In this document: one piece after another, positions 3,996-18,338 of the stretch | How positions within the stretch are numbered: the stretch's first letter is position 1 | Layout: each line of letters opens with the position of its first letter | Origin: a virus | Lineage: Duplodnaviria > Heunggongvirae > Uroviricota > Caudoviricetes | Length of the DNA: 52,473 nucleotides | Virus record (IMG/VR): IMGVR_UViG_2541047750_000003 | Span: 1 to 52,473 of that record | Reading direction: 5' to 3' (one strand) | Translations under genes and position numbers: made by a program | Notes under the pieces: generated by a model | The model's input: the letters and a program-made list of their open reading frames with translations, nothing else | What the model was told of the DNA's origin: nothing | The model's database searches: none

Positions 3996-5114
3996 TTACA
4001 AAATGGAATATTCAGAGTAATAAACAAAGCGCCCAATTTCCCCATGATCCGGGCTGTAAATAATCACCGCTGCCAGACGCCGCGACCGCCAGCCGCCATT
4101 AGTTGAATATGCGTCTTTGCCAGCTAATGTGCCGTGGTGCTCAACTATTCCAAGTGATGTTTCAACAACTGATTGATGGTGCAGATGTCCAGTGTGAGCG
4201 TAAACAGCCACAGACCTCCCGAAATCCTCCCGCCAGTCAGATACGCAAGCCGACAATAAATTTTCCGGCTTTTTGATAGTGTGCCCGTGGTGGTAAGCAA
4301 GGAATGTTTTGCCGTACTGTGTGTGGTGGACGATAGCAGGGGACACATCAACAGTTACGCGCGGTTCATCTTCGTAAAAAGCCGCCAGCGCCGCACGTAG
4401 CCAAATCATGCCAGACTGATCGTGATTGCCTGATAGTACCTGGATTTCAATATCCTTATGATTTAACAACATCTTTCCTACCGCCCGACGTACCGCTCGG
4501 ATCGCTACATAGACAAGTTTTGCATAGCGTGAATCGCAATCCAGTACGTGATTGCTTGATGGCGTAACTGGCAACAGCCCGTCAGTGTGAAGAACATCCC
4601 CACCGAGAAGCAAAACAGCTTTTTCAGACATCGGCGCAGCGCCCACCGCGTAGTCAAAGAATTCATTCAACACGCGTTCAGCGATCCCAGTGTCGTAGCT
4701 CTCGCCGCATTCAGCTTTATGAGCAAGCGCCCCGATATGCAGATCAAATACCGGATAAAGGGCCAGGCTTTTTTGAAAATCAATTTCAGGCACTGGCACG
4801 GCCTCCGCGCGTGGTATTTCTTCCGTGAATGCGTCGCGGGCAGCTTCCATTAGCCTTTCCATTTCATCACGGTCACGGGCAGTTTTAATCCAGCGCATGA
4901 CCGTATTACCAGCCTTATCGACAAGAACAGATTCACCAGTAACGCCAAAACCAGGCGCGCGACGCGTTGATATTAAACCGCGTTTCGCCAGTTTTGCGCC
5001 TAGCCGCTCGACGTTGCGTTTTGACATGCCATATTTTTCAGCGATCTGCTTGTACGTTAAACCGTTGTTATATTCAGCGATCAATTGCTCATCGCTGATT
5101 TTTCTTTGCGACAT
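3996..5114 (-). CDS. HTH domain fused to calcineurin-like metallophosphoesterase (372 aa)
   Basis: N-terminal HTH (LTYKQIAEKYGMSKRNVERL); ordered phosphoesterase motifs DLHIG, GGDVLH, GNHD, GHLHH; GAGGAA RBS; sits where a helicase loader or O/P-type protein would be. Confidence 0.6.
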   Translation of the reverse strand: MSQRKISDEQLIAEYNNGLTYKQIAEKYGMSKRNVERLGAKLAKRGLISTRRAPGFGVTGESVLVDKAGNTVMRWIKTARDRDEMERLMEAARDAFTEEIPRAEAVPVPEIDFQKSLALYPVFDLHIGALAHKAECGESYDTGIAERVLNEFFDYAVGAAPMSEKAVLLLGGDVLHTDGLLPVTPSSNHVLDCDSRYAKLVYVAIRAVRRAVGKMLLNHKDIEIQVLSGNHDQSGMIWLRAALAAFYEDEPRVTVDVSPAIVHHTQYGKTFLAYHHGHTIKKPENLLSACVSDWREDFGRSVAVYAHTGHLHHQSVVETSLGIVEHHGTLAGKDAYSTNGGWRSRRLAAVIIYSPDHGEIGRFVYYSEYSIL

Positions 5115-5147
5115 AATGTTATTTCCTCATGTTTACATTTTGTATAT

Positions 5148-6071
5148 TTATTGACAGCAAACAATCTCTTTATATGTTTCTTCTACCATGTCGAATACTT
5201 CCGGCCTGTAATAAAAAAATTCAGTGCTACCATCAAACTTAACAGGGAAGTTTATTTTATAGTCACTGAAAGCATCGTGCATTTTGCTTTCTATTTCCTG
5301 CATAATCTCAGTAGGCCCATTCCATGTTTTAACTACCTGTAAATCAGTCAGCCTTACACCTGCCTTACGAGCACTTTTAAATACTCTGTTCCTCCTTTCG
5401 TTCTCTTTTACGCTTACACCAATTTTCATTTGTGTAGGCACTTCAAGATCATCAACCATGATGTAAAGTTTTCCGTTGTAGTGTGATAAAAACCCGTATT
5501 TAGCGCATTTCGGGCAACCGCGCCCGCTCTTAATGTCTCTAGGTTTAGCCGACCACTCATGATCACAAACCTTGCAGCGGCATAATACTTTTGTACTGTT
5601 ATTAACTATTTCAACCAGCACTTCAATATCAGGATTAACCTTAGCAATAGCCGATATTTGTTCTTCATGCGATATTTTTTTGCCTTGCGCTCGTTTTAGC
5701 ACCGCACATTTCTGGCAACCGCTCCCGATCTTAAGGCTTTTAGGTGTAGAATACCACTCATGATCACAAACCTTGCAGCGGCATAATACTTTTATTTTGT
5801 CGCCGGTAATTTCCCCAAGCACTTCAATATCAGGATTAACCTTAGCAATAGCCGATATTTGTTCTTCATGCGATAACTTCATATTCCCAGCGCATTTCTG
5901 GCAACCACGTCCATATTTAATATTGCTAGGTGTAGCCGACCATTCATGGTTACAAACTTTGCAGCGACATAATACTTTTGTACTGTTATTAACAATTTCC
6001 CCTAACACTTCAACATCAGGATTAACTTTCGCGATAGCTGCAACTTGTTCTTCATGTGTTAACTTGCGCAT
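5148..6071 (-). CDS. protein with three tandem zinc-ribbon-like repeats and a C-terminal T5orf172/GIY-YIG-like domain (307 aa)
   Basis: Three ~65-aa repeats each with CRCKVC...GCQKCA (C-x-C-x2-C ... C-x2-C); C-terminal KLYIMVDD...KIG...EFFYY segment resembles T5orf172; AAGGAG RBS. Confidence 0.55.
   Translation of the reverse strand: MRKLTHEEQVAAIAKVNPDVEVLGEIVNNSTKVLCRCKVCNHEWSATPSNIKYGRGCQKCAGNMKLSHEEQISAIAKVNPDIEVLGEITGDKIKVLCRCKVCDHEWYSTPKSLKIGSGCQKCAVLKRAQGKKISHEEQISAIAKVNPDIEVLVEIVNNSTKVLCRCKVCDHEWSAKPRDIKSGRGCPKCAKYGFLSHYNGKLYIMVDDLEVPTQMKIGVSVKENERRNRVFKSARKAGVRLTDLQVVKTWNGPTEIMQEIESKMHDAFSDYKINFPVKFDGSTEFFYYRPEVFDMVEETYKEIVCCQ
5480..6070. repeat. three ~195-bp tandem direct repeats inside the CDS
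   Basis: Long near-identical blocks, e.g. cacttcaatatcaggattaaccttagcaatagccgatatttgttcttcatgcgata at ~5619 and ~5820, with a diverged third copy ~5940-6060. Confidence 0.7.
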
Positions 6072-13521: not shown

Positions 13522-13714
13522 ACATTACATGGAATGGAAAATTCCAGAAGCAGCAACAAAGGCAGCGCCAGGAAATTTTTCTGGCGTTTATTTTTATATG
13601 GATGGCAAATGGTATTTCGGCAGCAGGCCGGATCACTACTATCAAGAAATATGCAAGCCTCACGTATGGGATATTAAAGAGCGCGTGAAAGGCGGGGTAA
13701 TTGAGGACGTTTAA
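13511..13714 (+). CDS. hypothetical early protein (67 aa)
   Basis: ORF in operon. Confidence 0.35.
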   Translation: MKFKHYMEWKIPEAATKAAPGNFSGVYFYMDGKWYFGSRPDHYYQEICKPHVWDIKERVKGGVIEDV

Positions 13715-13715
13715 A

Positions 13716-13952
13716 ATGCTTAAGAGCTTTTTTAACTGGTTGGGGGTGTGGCTTTTGGCTACGCTTTTTGTTTTCCTGGCGGCCCTGACTGTTATCGGTG
13801 TTATTATGCTGGGTGCTATGTTTATTACGTGGTCGCTTCCTGAATTTAACGACATTGGGAATATTCTTTTTGCAGCCCGCGCTTTATTGGCTGTTAGCGC
13901 ATTCATTGGTTTTTGCTGGACTGCCGCGCCGGATTGGACTGACACATGGTGA
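13716..13952 (+). CDS. two-helix membrane protein (78 aa)
   Basis: Start refined to MLKSFFNW...; two long hydrophobic stretches. Confidence 0.4.
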   Translation: MLKSFFNWLGVWLLATLFVFLAALTVIGVIMLGAMFITWSLPEFNDIGNILFAARALLAVSAFIGFCWTAAPDWTDTW

Positions 13953-14199: not shown

Positions 14200-14739
14200 A
14201 TGAAAAATGATTACGGCGGCAGCCATACGCCGAAAGAAATAAAGGACTTATGGCAAACGCCAAAACCCGTTTTTAGAGGAATGGATCGGGAATTCGAGTT
14301 CGTCGCGGATGTGGCGGCAAACAAGGAAAACGCATTAATCCCGAGATATATAACCGAAGAAATGGACACGCTCCATTATCCGTGGGGAGCGGTGGCGATG
14401 CCTGGTGAGTATGTCTGGATGAATCCGCCATATTCTAATCCGGGACCATTCGTTGATAAGGCGGCGCTTGAACATCAACGAAATCACATTGGCTGTGTAA
14501 TGCTATTGCCCGCTGACATTTCTGTTAGCTGGTTTATGAACGGCGTGGAGACGGCAAACGAATGCCGATTAATCACGCGCGGGCGGCTGGCGTTTATCAA
14601 TGCTGCAACAGGGAAACCAGTAAGCGGGAACAATAAGGGGAGCTTGTTCTTGATCTGGCATCCACGATGCAGACATGAATGTATTTTCACGCAGATAACA
14701 CGTAAAGAGCTATACGCGAGAGGCGCAAATAATGACTAA
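14200..14739 (+). CDS. phage Dam-like N6-adenine DNA methyltransferase
   Basis: 179 aa; catalytic motif WMNPPYS (DPPY/NPPY class); size and layout typical of phage Dam MTases. Confidence 0.6.
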   Translation: MKNDYGGSHTPKEIKDLWQTPKPVFRGMDREFEFVADVAANKENALIPRYITEEMDTLHYPWGAVAMPGEYVWMNPPYSNPGPFVDKAALEHQRNHIGCVMLLPADISVSWFMNGVETANECRLITRGRLAFINAATGKPVSGNNKGSLFLIWHPRCRHECIFTQITRKELYARGANND

Positions 14740-15244
14740 GGCAGCAGATTTATTAAGACTTGCAGCAGAAACCATAGAGCAAAGAGGTAAGCAAAACGGC
14801 TACGACAAAAAAGAGGAAAAATCAGCGCCAAAAATAGCCACTATTTACAACGCTAAGAAGGGGGCAGATTTAACCACGCTTGATGTATGGGATCTGCTAA
14901 TTTGTCTCAAGGAGGCGCGTTTAGAGGCTATTTTGAGCAATAACAGCGATCCGACAGACACACTAATTGATTTAATTAGCTATAACGCGCTAAAAGCTGA
15001 GCAAATATTAACGGAACGTGAGGAAGAACAAAGAAAGAAACAGGCTGTTTTTGATCTCCCTATCAGCGGAGGGATAAAACTTTACTCTGATATTTCAGTG
15101 CCTGACCCGTCGATTATTCCTGGGAAAATAATTCCTACTGTGAAGTTTAACGGTGAGGTCGCTAATTGGCTTGATTTGAAGTTTGACAGATCAGAATGTA
15201 TTCATGATAAGAGGTACGATCCAAATGGAAAGGGTGACAATTGA
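14732..15244 (+). CDS. hypothetical early protein (170 aa)
   Basis: ORF overlapping the MTase stop. Confidence 0.45.
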   Translation: MTKAADLLRLAAETIEQRGKQNGYDKKEEKSAPKIATIYNAKKGADLTTLDVWDLLICLKEARLEAILSNNSDPTDTLIDLISYNALKAEQILTEREEEQRKKQAVFDLPISGGIKLYSDISVPDPSIIPGKIIPTVKFNGEVANWLDLKFDRSECIHDKRYDPNGKGDN

Positions 15245-15728
15245 CAGGTTATTAGCCTGCGTTTATGTCGCCGTTTTCGTGATTATCAATCTTATTGTTA
15301 ACCATTGCGGCCCGTGGGTGATTCCGATCACCACGGTAGCCGCAGTGTGTGTCAATATGATGATCCGTGACTTTCTGTTATATGACGGCGGCCTGAAATG
15401 GTCGGCTACAACATGCGCCGCCGCTGGCGCAATCACGGTGCTGATAAATTACGACGCCGGAATGGTGGCGATCGCGTCATTCGTCGCGGTTGTTTCCGGT
15501 GCGCTTATTTCTGGCGGCGTTTACCGGGTTCTACCTGGTGATTTCGATTCCAAACGCTGGCCTGCAAATATAGCGTCCGCCATTGGCGATGCGTTAATTT
15601 TTCCCACGCTATCGTTTATGGCATTTATGCCGGAAATATCAGCTATTCAATTCATCTCAAAAATGGCAGCGGTAACGGTGATCACTATCATCATGCGCCG
15701 CTATTTCACGTTTGAGGGTAGAAAATGA
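15225..15728 (+). CDS. multi-pass integral membrane protein (~167 aa)
   Basis: Four to five hydrophobic helices; start uncertain (track ORF 15183..15728); family not assignable by eye. Confidence 0.4.
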   Translation: MERVTIDRLLACVYVAVFVIINLIVNHCGPWVIPITTVAAVCVNMMIRDFLLYDGGLKWSATTCAAAGAITVLINYDAGMVAIASFVAVVSGALISGGVYRVLPGDFDSKRWPANIASAIGDALIFPTLSFMAFMPEISAIQFISKMAAVTVITIIMRRYFTFEGRK

Positions 15729-16489
15729 GCGGGCTTAGAAATTGGGTTATCTGGTCGCTGTACGACGGAAGCGGGTACGCCGTTAAAGATTGGGCGGAAG
15801 CTGGTTATAAATGCTATTGCTTCAACTATGACGGCGCTAATCACGGGGATTATGACGGGGTAAAAATAATTCATCCAAATATTGAATATGTTAACGTATG
15901 GATTGACAGCCATTTCCTGGTAATGTTCTCCCCTGAATTGTCTGTTTATCCAGATCCTGACATTATCTTGGGCTTTCCTCCATGCGACAATCTCGCCGTT
16001 TCAGGCGCTCGCTGGTTCGCTGATAAACGGAAAAAAGACCCTGACTTCCAGGTGAAGGCGGCGCATAACGCAAAACTGGTAGAAAAACTGGCGAATATGC
16101 ATAACGTGCCGTGGATGGTGGAAAATCCGGTGGGCGCACTGTCAACGTTATGGCGTAAACCGGATTTTATCTTCAATCCGTGCGCTTACGGTGGCTACCT
16201 GCCGGAAGATGATAAGCATCCCGCTTTCCCGGAATACATTGCCGACCGCGACGCCTACACGAAGAAAACTTGTATTTGGTGCGGGAATGGATTTAAGCAG
16301 CCGCTATTCCGTCCTGTGCCGATGCCAGATGAATGGGAAGACAGTAAGCAGCACGCGAAGTTAGGCGGAAAATCAAAGCGAACAAAGATGATCCGCTCAC
16401 TAACGCCGCGTGGCTTCGCCCGTGCTGTATTCCTGGCTAACGACCGGGCCATCAATCGTACTACGCTCAACCGCGTTTTGCCGGACTGA
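15725..16489 (+). CDS. short C5-cytosine DNA methyltransferase-like protein (254 aa)
   Basis: Motif I-like SLYDGSGY, motif IV-like GFPPCDNLAVSGAR (compare GFPCQxFSxAG), motif VI-like VENPVGAL. Confidence 0.45.
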   Translation: MSGLRNWVIWSLYDGSGYAVKDWAEAGYKCYCFNYDGANHGDYDGVKIIHPNIEYVNVWIDSHFLVMFSPELSVYPDPDIILGFPPCDNLAVSGARWFADKRKKDPDFQVKAAHNAKLVEKLANMHNVPWMVENPVGALSTLWRKPDFIFNPCAYGGYLPEDDKHPAFPEYIADRDAYTKKTCIWCGNGFKQPLFRPVPMPDEWEDSKQHAKLGGKSKRTKMIRSLTPRGFARAVFLANDRAINRTTLNRVLPD

Positions 16490-16511
16490 AGTTTACAAAA
16501 TGGCGTCATTG

Positions 16512-16527
16512 TGTGATGAATGTCACA
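16512..16527. promoter_or_regulatory. CRP-consensus-like palindrome TGTGA-N6-TCACA
   Basis: tgtgatgaatgtcaca matches both CRP half-sites; lies between inverted TACAAAATGG motifs upstream of the NinG operon. Confidence 0.35.
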
Positions 16528-16648
16528 TAATGGCGCTTTGCACCTTGTTAGCACGTATCCATTTTGTATACTTCAAGCAAACAAAATGCTCTTTAAAAAT
16601 CCGGCAGCGCTGAAATGCGTAGAAATCACCTGAAAAGGAGAGAGCATT

Positions 16649-16825
16649 ATGCCTTTTGATAATTACCAATGGCATGACGACTATGAACGAGAAAGCGTTA
16701 TGCGTGCAATGTGCAATGTATGCAGCACGAAGAAAGGAGGCTGTAACGAGTGCAACGAATGCTTAGAACATTGGCTAAGGGCCGGACACGCCGAAAGGCT
16801 GAACGAAACAGAGAATCAAAAATAA
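16649..16825 (+). CDS. small Cys-rich (zinc-binding-like) protein (58 aa)
   Basis: MPFDNYQWHDDYERESVMRAMCNVCSTKKGGCNECNECLEHW...; AAAGGAGAG RBS; below track cutoff. Confidence 0.45.
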   Translation: MPFDNYQWHDDYERESVMRAMCNVCSTKKGGCNECNECLEHWLRAGHAERLNETENQK

Positions 16826-16839
16826 TCGGGGTGGTTTTT

Positions 16840-17445
16840 ATGCAAAACCCTAAAAAACCCATAAGACGCCGTTGCAAGTGCTGCGGCGTTTTTTTTGAGC
16901 CTAAATATCATAATCAAACGTGGTGCAGCGATGAATGTCTGGAAGAACTGAAGTTTGACCAGCTATGCCGCGACCGTGAAAAGGCTATGAAGGCTATGGA
17001 ACGGAAGAAACGCCGCGATAGCCAGCGGGAAGAACGCAACCGGAAGCGGAAACAGTTAAATCCGCGCAGCTACTGGATCAAGCAAGTTCAAAACGTATTC
17101 AACGCCTATATCCGCGAACGTGACGCGCGCTTGCCGTGTATATCCTGCGGGACTTACTACGGTGAGCAATGCGGGTGGGATGCGGGCCATTACAGGACGG
17201 TTGCCGCCGCAGGACACCTTCGCTTTAACGAGGATAATTGCCATAAACAATGCAGGCACTGCAACCAGACATTAGACGGAAACATAGGAGGGTATCGCCC
17301 GGCGCTAATTCGAAAAATTGGCCTCGCCATGGTGGTAGCTCTGGAGAACAACAACGATACGCATAAATGGACGATTGCAGAATGTAAGGAGCTAATAAAC
17401 ATCTATCAGGCGAAATTGGACGCCTTAAGGAGAAAGGTAGCATGA
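16840..17445 (+). CDS. ninG: NinG/Rap-like recombination protein
   Basis: Start refined from track ORF 16750; RRCKCCGVFF...WCSDEC and CISCG...GHYRTVAAAGHLRFNEDNCHKQCRHCN match the NinG Cys/His pattern. Confidence 0.7.
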   Translation: MQNPKKPIRRRCKCCGVFFEPKYHNQTWCSDECLEELKFDQLCRDREKAMKAMERKKRRDSQREERNRKRKQLNPRSYWIKQVQNVFNAYIRERDARLPCISCGTYYGEQCGWDAGHYRTVAAAGHLRFNEDNCHKQCRHCNQTLDGNIGGYRPALIRKIGLAMVVALENNNDTHKWTIAECKELINIYQAKLDALRRKVA

Positions 17446-18338
17446 ATAATTGGCATGATATATTTGAATACGACAACGGTTTTTTATATTGGAAGGGAAA
17501 GAAAGGAAAGTGTAACGCTGGTGATTTGGCTGGTTGCATCCATAAAAATAGTGGTTATTGGGTTGTTCGTGTTAACGATAAATTACATAAAGTACATAGA
17601 ATTATATGGGAAATGCATAACGGACCAATTCCGAAAGGATGCGAGATAGATCATATTTGGCACAACAGAAATGATAACAGGATAGAAAATTTACGCCTTG
17701 TTACTCATAAGCAAAACGGAAGAAATCAGGCAAAACCAAAAAATAATAAAAGTGGGCAGCCTGGGGTTCATAAACTTTCTAACGGATACTATAGAGCGGA
17801 AATATGTGTTAATGGTAAAAATGTGTATCTTGGTCAGTTTGATAATTTTGAAGATGCAGTGGATGTCAGAAAAAAAGGAGAAAAAAAATATTGTTTCCAT
17901 GAAAACAATGGTGTAAGCAAGGAGATTTTGATGCGTGAATTTGAATTCACGTTACCCTGGGCACCATCGGTTAATTCTTATTACGGCAACAATAAAAGGG
18001 GTAGTAAGTATGTAACAAACAAAGGCAAGGATTTCCAAAAAAAAGTCAAAGAAATAATAGAATCACTAAAACTTGATCTTAATATTGATTTTAATGTTTC
18101 CGTTTATATATATGTAGCGCCACCTACACTACGCCCACACGATATTGATAATTGCTTAAAAGCAATATTCGATAGTCTTACTTACGCTCATTTTTGGGTT
18201 GATGATAGGCAGGTTTTTAGTCTTAAGGTTGTAAAGTGCCATAAAATAAAAAACGGCCAGATATTCGTAAAAGTGAAAGAACATTCAGGGGTGTTACCTG
18301 ATATTAACGAATATATTCAGAATTATTGGGAGGTGTGA
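17442..18338 (+). CDS. HNH endonuclease (with AP2-like segment) fused in frame to RusA-like Holliday junction resolvase
   Basis: N-terminal half: HNH motif EIDHIWHNRNDNRIENLRLVTHKQN plus GVHKLSNGYYRAEICVNGKNVYLGQFDNFEDA; C-terminal half: RusA-like LPWAPSVNSYYG...HDIDNCLKAIFDSL...WVDDRQV; markedly AT-rich N-terminal half. Confidence 0.6.
   Translation: MNNWHDIFEYDNGFLYWKGKKGKCNAGDLAGCIHKNSGYWVVRVNDKLHKVHRIIWEMHNGPIPKGCEIDHIWHNRNDNRIENLRLVTHKQNGRNQAKPKNNKSGQPGVHKLSNGYYRAEICVNGKNVYLGQFDNFEDAVDVRKKGEKKYCFHENNGVSKEILMREFEFTLPWAPSVNSYYGNNKRGSKYVTNKGKDFQKKVKEIIESLKLDLNIDFNVSVYIYVAPPTLRPHDIDNCLKAIFDSLTYAHFWVDDRQVFSLKVVKCHKIKNGQIFVKVKEHSGVLPDINEYIQNYWEV

Follow-up and report, generated by a model that had tools for sequence, protein, structure and literature searches.

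Orphan phage methylases are classically tied to restriction evasion. The closest described counterparts of the locus considered here are genes gp30 to gp33 of the temperate coliphage mEp021 (GenBank MH706966) and their equivalents in Escherichia phage MagusPhagus (PP925836), annotated in turn as a putative Dam, a hypothetical protein, a putative membrane protein with six transmembrane segments and a putative DNA cytosine methyltransferase. We analysed nucleotides 14200-16489 of a 52,473-nucleotide stretch of viral DNA (positions 1 to 52,473 of IMG/VR record IMGVR_UViG_2541047750_000003; this whole stretch is called the window), where the same four genes occur in the same order. They lie co-directionally on the plus strand, as do all features given below, and encode a Dam-type adenine methylase, a DUF6378 protein, a VUT/YhhQ-like membrane protein and a short Dcm-like C5-cytosine methyltransferase. 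With a probability of roughly 0.78, we take this cassette to be a translationally coupled, delayed-early segment of the rightward operon of an mEp021-group temperate coliphage that carries two independent orphan methyltransferases, the two inner genes probably not being needed for methylation.

For the cytosine methylase, an experimentally studied relative is the Dcm of K42, a phage that shares 95.4% genome identity with KarlJaspers (Bas06). All K42 mutants that escaped the retron Ec86 had their 711-bp dcm gene disrupted (preprint, doi 10.1101/2023.08.16.553469). In the same study, K42 Dcm was modelled and superposed on DNMT3A, and its expression in E. coli raised the level of 5-methylcytosine (5mC) in the multicopy single-stranded DNA (msDNA), as determined by liquid chromatography coupled to mass spectrometry (LC-MS). 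No such rise was observed with the C82A/E128A/K175A/K176A quadruple mutant, in which K175 and K176 had been assigned as substrate-binding residues. The Dcm-like gene was nevertheless retained in 34 of the 35 Ec86-sensitive phages (doi 10.1101/2023.08.16.553469). The corresponding KarlJaspers gene, bas06_0055, is likewise 711 bp long and is annotated as a "Dcm-like C5 cytosine methyltransferase."

The 254-residue product of the last gene of the cassette (15725-16489) is 60% identical to bas06_0055 over 232 residues (E 1e-99), and its C87, E133, K180, and K181 align with C82, E128, K175, and K176 of the K42/KarlJaspers Dcm, which makes the window gene a member of an experimentally active family. 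The two proteins share a short architecture (236 residues in KarlJaspers/K42, 254 in the window) and a DNMT3-like fold in addition to the four functional residues. They differ in setting, as the window gene sits inside the four-gene coupled cassette of a temperate mEp021-type siphovirus while the KarlJaspers gene stands alone in a virulent member of the Drexlerviridae. The window protein also shows PPCD in place of the family's usual PPCT, and it has a 15-residue C-terminal tail of low model confidence. The family as a whole corresponds to phrog_757 (E 7e-88 for the window protein), and the search yielded 2,373 homologues of about 225 to 262 residues. Phage records with a member number 1,516 and include Drexlerviridae, Dhillonvirus, rV5-like phages, and Klebsiella siphoviruses. 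The gene usually stands alone, as it does at the two loci inspected from phages other than the mEp group, SSE121 and KarlJaspers.

Sequence and profile searches linked this family to the canonical C5 methyltransferases at a distance. The family profile aligned to motifs I-IV of M.HaeIII, which was also its one match in the PDB and a marginal one (E 0.63), and hhalign against E. coli Dcm aligned motif IV only. PF00145 was matched by 14 of 35 family members at a relaxed E <= 1, with a best E of 1.3e-6. PDB searches with the single sequences of the C5-like, membrane, and DUF6378 proteins returned nothing useful. Because these searches were weak, the assignment was settled by a fold search: the structure model of the C5-like protein (mean predicted local distance difference test score, pLDDT, 86.5) has the catalytic-domain fold of C5 methyltransferases, and its closest match is DNMT3B, a eukaryotic enzyme with a minimal target recognition domain (TRD). 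The window protein has in common with M.HhaI, M.HaeIII, E. coli Dcm, and DNMT3A/B the Rossmann methyltransferase fold and motifs I (xDGSG), IV (PC), and VI (ENx).

An alignment of 35 family sequences showed where the functional residues lie. The family has invariant xDGSG, PPC, and ENP motifs and a compact C-terminal RSLTPRGFAxAVxxAN. In the window protein, YDGSG (15761-15775) is the equivalent of motif I (FxGxG, AdoMet, that is S-adenosylmethionine, binding), with G15 and S16 invariant; GFPPCDNLAVSGAR (residues 83-96, 15971-16012) is motif IV with the catalytic Cys87, where P85, P86, and C87 are invariant; and VENPVGAL (residues 132-139, 16118-16141) is the ENV-type motif VI with Glu133, where E133, N134, and P135 are invariant. 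Further downstream, TKKT (16259-16270) contributes Lys180 and Lys181, of which K180 is invariant, in the strand where the canonical motif VIII (QxRxR) sits. Judged from the linear order of the motifs, RSLTPRGFARAVFLAN (16394-16441) would correspond, in compacted form, to motifs IX and X; R224, S225, L226, T227, R229, G230, A234, and N239 are invariant in it.

An earlier sequence-only reading of this DNA had suggested that the C5-like protein is short because it may have lost or replaced its TRD, and this did not hold up. Since the whole family is of the same length, shortness is the family norm and not a sign of decay or domain loss, and the 60%-identical orthologue is active in vivo. The TRD region of the window protein spans about 35 to 40 residues (188-223), measured from strand 182-187 of the model to the motif IX-like helix, whereas bacterial C5 methyltransferases have TRDs of at least 80 residues, and a small TRD is found family-wide. 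Model confidence is lower here, with pLDDT blocks of 66 and 73 for residues 201-220, and in a 15-residue C-terminal tail. Other claims of that reading were confirmed. The motifs that it had quoted, WMNPPYS, GFPPCDNLAVSGAR, and VENPVGAL, all occur in the genes to which it had ascribed them, and the open reading frame (ORF) boundaries 14200-14739 and 15725-16489 are exact. Profile, fold, and close homology identify both proteins that it had called methyltransferase-like as methyltransferases, so the motifs are not chance matches. The catalytic residues that it had named as a check are conserved, with Cys87 invariant in the 35 family sequences and NPPY present in Dam.

The first gene of the cassette (14200-14739) encodes a 179-residue protein that matched PF05869 over profile positions 1-167 of 169 (E 2e-52, 177.6 bits against a cut-off of 28.1), the NCBIfam equivalog TIGR01712 for phage N-6-adenine-methyltransferase (143.4 bits, cut-off 97.05), and phrog_111 (E 8e-65). 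Its (D/N)PPY catalytic motif, located by script and read in the sequence, is WMNPPYS (residues 73-79, 14416-14436), with NPPY at residues 75-78. The protein thus shares both the full-length profile match and the catalytic motif with the PF05869/TIGR01712 family, and it is 40% identical to the Dam-like protein of KarlJaspers. On these matches it is predicted to be a phage Dam, an N6-adenine DNA methyltransferase, and we see no ground for doubting this; its specificity is probably GATC.

Neighboring genes in the cassette overlap by 8, 20, and 4 nucleotides, the last an ATGA overlap, and the four genes are therefore translationally coupled. All four ORFs are real genes. The 2,290-bp region is 95.9% identical to that of MagusPhagus and 87-88% identical to those of the mEp021-group (mEpimmI) temperate coliphages, so that the DNA identity to the two annotated counterparts lies between 87 and 96%, and among 5,426 complete E. 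coli genomes, 35 carry the cassette within a prophage. The four-gene order is common to mEp021, MagusPhagus, and one metagenomic contig in which protein identity has fallen to 53-63%. Compared with mEp021 codon by codon, Dam has 44 synonymous and 8 non-synonymous differences, the membrane protein 34 and 4, and the C5-like protein 64 and 29, showing purifying selection; in the DUF6378 gene, the non-synonymous differences (46) outnumbered the synonymous ones (32). The genes downstream encode NinG, an HNH-RusA fusion, and a Q-like antiterminator, which places the cassette in the rightward early operon. The sequence-only reading had put the methylase genes in an early operon, and that is where they are, upstream of ninG, rusA, and Q of an mEp021-type phage. 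It had also described a multi-pass membrane protein between the methylases; such a protein is present, but it is not the only gene there, as the 170-residue DUF6378 gene had been overlooked. The methylase pair itself is already known, as the records of mEp021 and MagusPhagus and RefSeq prophage entries annotate it, and is ordinary overall.

The membrane protein (167 residues, 15225-15728) had not been recognized in the sequence-only reading as YhhQ-like, and the mEp021 record gives it no VUT/YhhQ label. It most likely starts at the ATG at 15225, which follows an AAGAGG Shine-Dalgarno sequence, and not at the alternative TTG at 15183; the longer ORF that begins with the TTG enters the PHROG alignment at its residue 16. 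Kyte-Doolittle analysis showed five to six hydrophobic spans, and the mEp021 record gives six transmembrane segments by both TMHMM and Phobius. The protein matched phrog_4899 (E 9e-46), and no Pfam match was found for the protein itself. A word-index search found 12 close homologues and an exhaustive HMMER search 144 remote ones. Of 46 aligned HMMER-detected homologues, 43 matched PF02592 (Vut_1), with a best E of 1.3e-13, and all ten longer homologues tested matched it at 37-53 bits (cut-off 27.2). When the family profile was compared with E. coli YhhQ by hhalign, 141 columns were aligned with a probability of 92.7% (E 4.3e-7), and the window protein retains every residue that is invariant in the family, including A82, D122, and K146. 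Some phage records already label homologues as "VUT family protein." On this evidence we assign the protein to the PF02592 superfamily as a divergent small VUT/YhhQ-type transporter, shorter than the 221-residue E. coli YhhQ, a transporter of the queuosine precursors preQ0/preQ1. By family, its substrate would most likely be an imported queuosine precursor base of the 7-deazaguanine type.

The genomic context of the VUT genes differs between two groups of phages. The distant homologues, 28-35% identical to the window protein, include the "VUT family proteins" PEAT2 gp18 and Opt-719 gp66, and in 10 of 10 such loci the VUT gene abuts a phrog_887 gene of about 245-275 residues (PEAT2, Opt-719, AB3P2, LHE71, RCIP0319, Phc, Lg3, Tbat1_6, ECO111 5-P, and one metagenomic contig; L009, L012-L016, and L020-L023). 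phrog_887 is annotated as queuine tRNA-ribosyltransferase, that is DpdA-like, and all ten neighbors form one family; the label comes from the phrog_887 and GenBank annotations, the profile of this family having found no PDB relative by sequence. The closer clade lacks DpdA. It consists of the window and loci L003 and L006-L008, among them an mEp-like contig at 53% identity and a phage contig at 46%, and its VUT genes lie near DNA methylase genes, with the exception of L007, which has no such methylase. A tblastn search of the window with five phrog_887 proteins found no DpdA-like gene (best E 0.12), and the examined portions of the mEp021 and MagusPhagus records contain no DpdA-like annotation. 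The phage would therefore be without the enzyme that defines 7-deazaguanine DNA modification, and a 7-deazaguanine (DpdA) module was rejected on this ground. Phage YhhQ homologues were reported not to correlate with any particular deazaguanine gene set (Hutinet et al. 2019). The VUT transporter is thus an orphan under strong purifying selection, and it is the sole, mildly unexplained element of the cassette. We also noted that the Tunavirus LHE71 (L015) carries, besides its VUT and DpdA-like pair, a short Dcm-like fragment or copy (54% identity over 140 residues) on the opposite strand at a distance of about 2.4 kb (1205-1618 and 4016-5319 of that locus), so that a VUT/DpdA-like pair and a Dcm-like gene can share one phage.

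The second gene (14732-15244) encodes a DUF6378 protein of 170 residues with a four-helix N-domain (residues 1-100) and a C-tail. It matched PF19905 (E 5e-7, 30.3 bits, cut-off 27.1) and phrog_9871 (E 4e-19). Among E. coli prophages, the N-terminal 100 residues are nearly invariant, while the C-tail (about residues 105-160) is hypervariable and mosaic, with several alternative tail types. This tail is also where the cassette differs from that of mEp021, whose DUF6378 protein is 72% identical overall. The AlphaFold2 model has a pLDDT of 55, with helices at residues 4-22, 31-42, 49-69, and 75-107, and the C-tail is probably disordered. Foldseek found no match to the model in the PDB at E < 1, and neither the structure search nor the literature provided a function. 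The idea that the protein is a MazG-like all-alpha NTP pyrophosphatase was dropped given the poor model, the lack of a Foldseek match, and the fact that no EExxE/D-type metal motif was seen; the PHROG label "phosphofructokinase" on related families found no support either.

Several features of the surrounding DNA may be recorded here. The stretch past the Dcm-like gene (16490-16650) is intergenic, and its mEp021 counterpart contains a predicted terminator as well as nutR2, a second nut site that the mEpimmI paper places just 3' of the cytosine methylase gene. Upstream of the cassette, two strong terminator-like hairpins with 11-12 bp stems followed by T-runs lie at 13564-13588 and 13742-13768, the former matching TERM_3 of mEp021 in position; terminator-like sites in the region number 11, compared with 4.5±2.4 in shuffled sequences. 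Further downstream, a single 298-residue ORF (17442-18338) contains an HNH_3 endonuclease domain (residues 50-94) and a RusA Holliday-junction resolvase domain (residues 173-278). The RusA gene has just 135 residues in mEp021 and MagusPhagus, and the longer ORF looks like an insertion of an HNH (homing-type) gene joined in frame to rusA.

Both presumptive target sites are frequent in the window. GATC occurs 233 times, compared with 172±14 expected from dinucleotide-preserving shuffles, and CCWGG occurs 127 times, compared with 57±7. Because both are over-represented, restriction-site avoidance was rejected. Anti-restriction by self-methylation, which the sequence-only reading had proposed, is plausible. 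We propose that the two outer genes would act independently, as a phage Dam probably methylating GATC and a short Dcm-like C5 methylase, the latter using AdoMet and covalent catalysis by Cys87 at cytosine C6 to yield 5mC. Both enzymes would be expressed early and would methylate replicating phage DNA as well as host DNA. The most likely benefit would be that, on a change of host, the phage DNA is shielded from restriction enzymes specific for the unmethylated sites, and a known cost is the activation of retron Ec86 (Eco1) by this family of Dcm-like enzymes. The DUF6378 protein and the VUT transporter would probably have no mechanistic part in methylation.

A number of points weigh against this interpretation. 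GATC as the target of Dam is presumed from characterized PF05869 members, the Dam proteins of T1, VT2/933W, and HP1. The C5-like protein falls below every Pfam and NCBIfam threshold, with no PF00145 match even at E 0.1, and it lacks the QxRxR of motif VIII, the corresponding strand reading D176-x-Y178-x-K180-K181-T182. For K42 Dcm, CCWGG was assumed from host Dcm, the support being mutation of a CCTGG site in the msDNA, and a dcm+ host alone left the msDNA less methylated than did K42 Dcm (doi 10.1101/2023.08.16.553469); the true recognition sequence may therefore differ. The mEpimmI-group paper merely lists the cytosine methylase gene, and in the BASEL study, resistance to restriction did not follow in any simple way from the presence of such phage methylase genes. 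Finally, the tight coupling and the kept order of the four genes, which we treat as coincidence, could reflect a functional link.

Two other explanations may be considered here. The VUT transporter may have moved from its usual DpdA partner to the methylase cassette and now serve methylation, for example by importing a methyl-donor-related or other small molecule, and/or the minimal-TRD Dcm-like enzyme may be a near-promiscuous cytosine methylase with a short motif in place of CCWGG specificity; we regard this as unlikely. If true, near-promiscuity would explain both the toxicity of the enzyme and its action on msDNA that host Dcm leaves unmethylated. An explanation in which the four genes make up one DNA-hypermodification pathway appears improbable. 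Here, VUT would import a base or cofactor precursor and the C5-like enzyme, perhaps together with the DUF6378 protein, would install or elaborate a modification other than 5mC. The translational coupling of all four genes, an order kept down to about 53-63% protein identity, and the fact that purifying selection is stronger on VUT than on the other three genes (34 synonymous and 4 non-synonymous differences) are in line with it, as is the neighborhood of the distant VUT homologues, which adjoin a DNA-modifying enzyme, the DpdA-like gene, in 10 of 10 loci; in a second context that lacks DpdA, the VUT gene lies two genes upstream of an N6_N4 methylase. However, contig L007 keeps the VUT gene without a neighboring N6_N4 methylase, and the tblastn search with DpdA-like queries revealed no base-exchange enzyme in the window. 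The Dcm-like family, present in more than 1,500 phages, is also vastly commoner than the VUT homologue, which occurs in just 21 phage-collection records (7 of them mEp-like), and the Dcm-like enzyme therefore works without VUT. Moreover, the K42 orthologue alone yielded 5mC in E. coli.

The same 5mC result bears on the possibility of CmoX-type carboxymethyltransferase activity in the C5-like enzyme, which would use carboxy-S-adenosylmethionine (Cx-SAM) made by E. coli CmoA to produce 5-carboxymethylcytosine. This was raised by a match to 8yf3, and E. coli does supply Cx-SAM, as is established for the synthesis of the tRNA nucleoside cmo5U (5-carboxymethoxyuridine). The CmoX paper itself relied on an E. 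coli system together with a strain deleted for cmoA. Yet the K42 orthologue gave 5mC by LC-MS, and CmoX genes typically lie beside cmoA and cmoY, of which neither the MagusPhagus genome nor the examined mEp021 region has an annotation. In CmoX, furthermore, Arg350 replaces the Asn of motif X (N304 of M.HhaI), whereas the window family has an invariant Asn239 that, going by linear order, is probably at that position. We rejected this possibility as very unlikely. As to the benefit, both methylases may be active and serve mainly the physiology of the phage, that is the regulation of gene expression, replication, or packaging, the evasion of methyl-directed mismatch repair while replication is rapid, or the countering of other methylation-sensing defenses. 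In E. coli hosts of the K-12 type, GATC and CCWGG are methylated anyway by the hosts' own Dam and Dcm, so that the extra protection gained there would be small; the Dcm-like gene is costly in retron Ec86 hosts and is still retained in nearly all of the sensitive phages, and the BASEL finding points the same way. Against a mainly physiological role stands the classical restriction-evasive function of orphan phage methylases, although the two roles are not exclusive, and we consider it doubtful that physiology is the main one. Regulatory clusters of GATC or CCWGG were not seen either, though no search was aimed at them.

Taken together, we favor the interpretation that the cassette contributes two independent methylases, with an early protective function that would be paid for by exposure to a retron. 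Its Dcm-like gene predicts that phages carrying it are sensitive to hosts with retron Ec86/Eco1, such as BL21. As this family is present in more than 1,500 phage genomes and has a minimal TRD, mapping its recognition sequence would be a worthwhile small experiment. The YhhQ-like transporter, kept without DpdA in a temperate coliphage, provides a test case for the substrates of phage VUT proteins.

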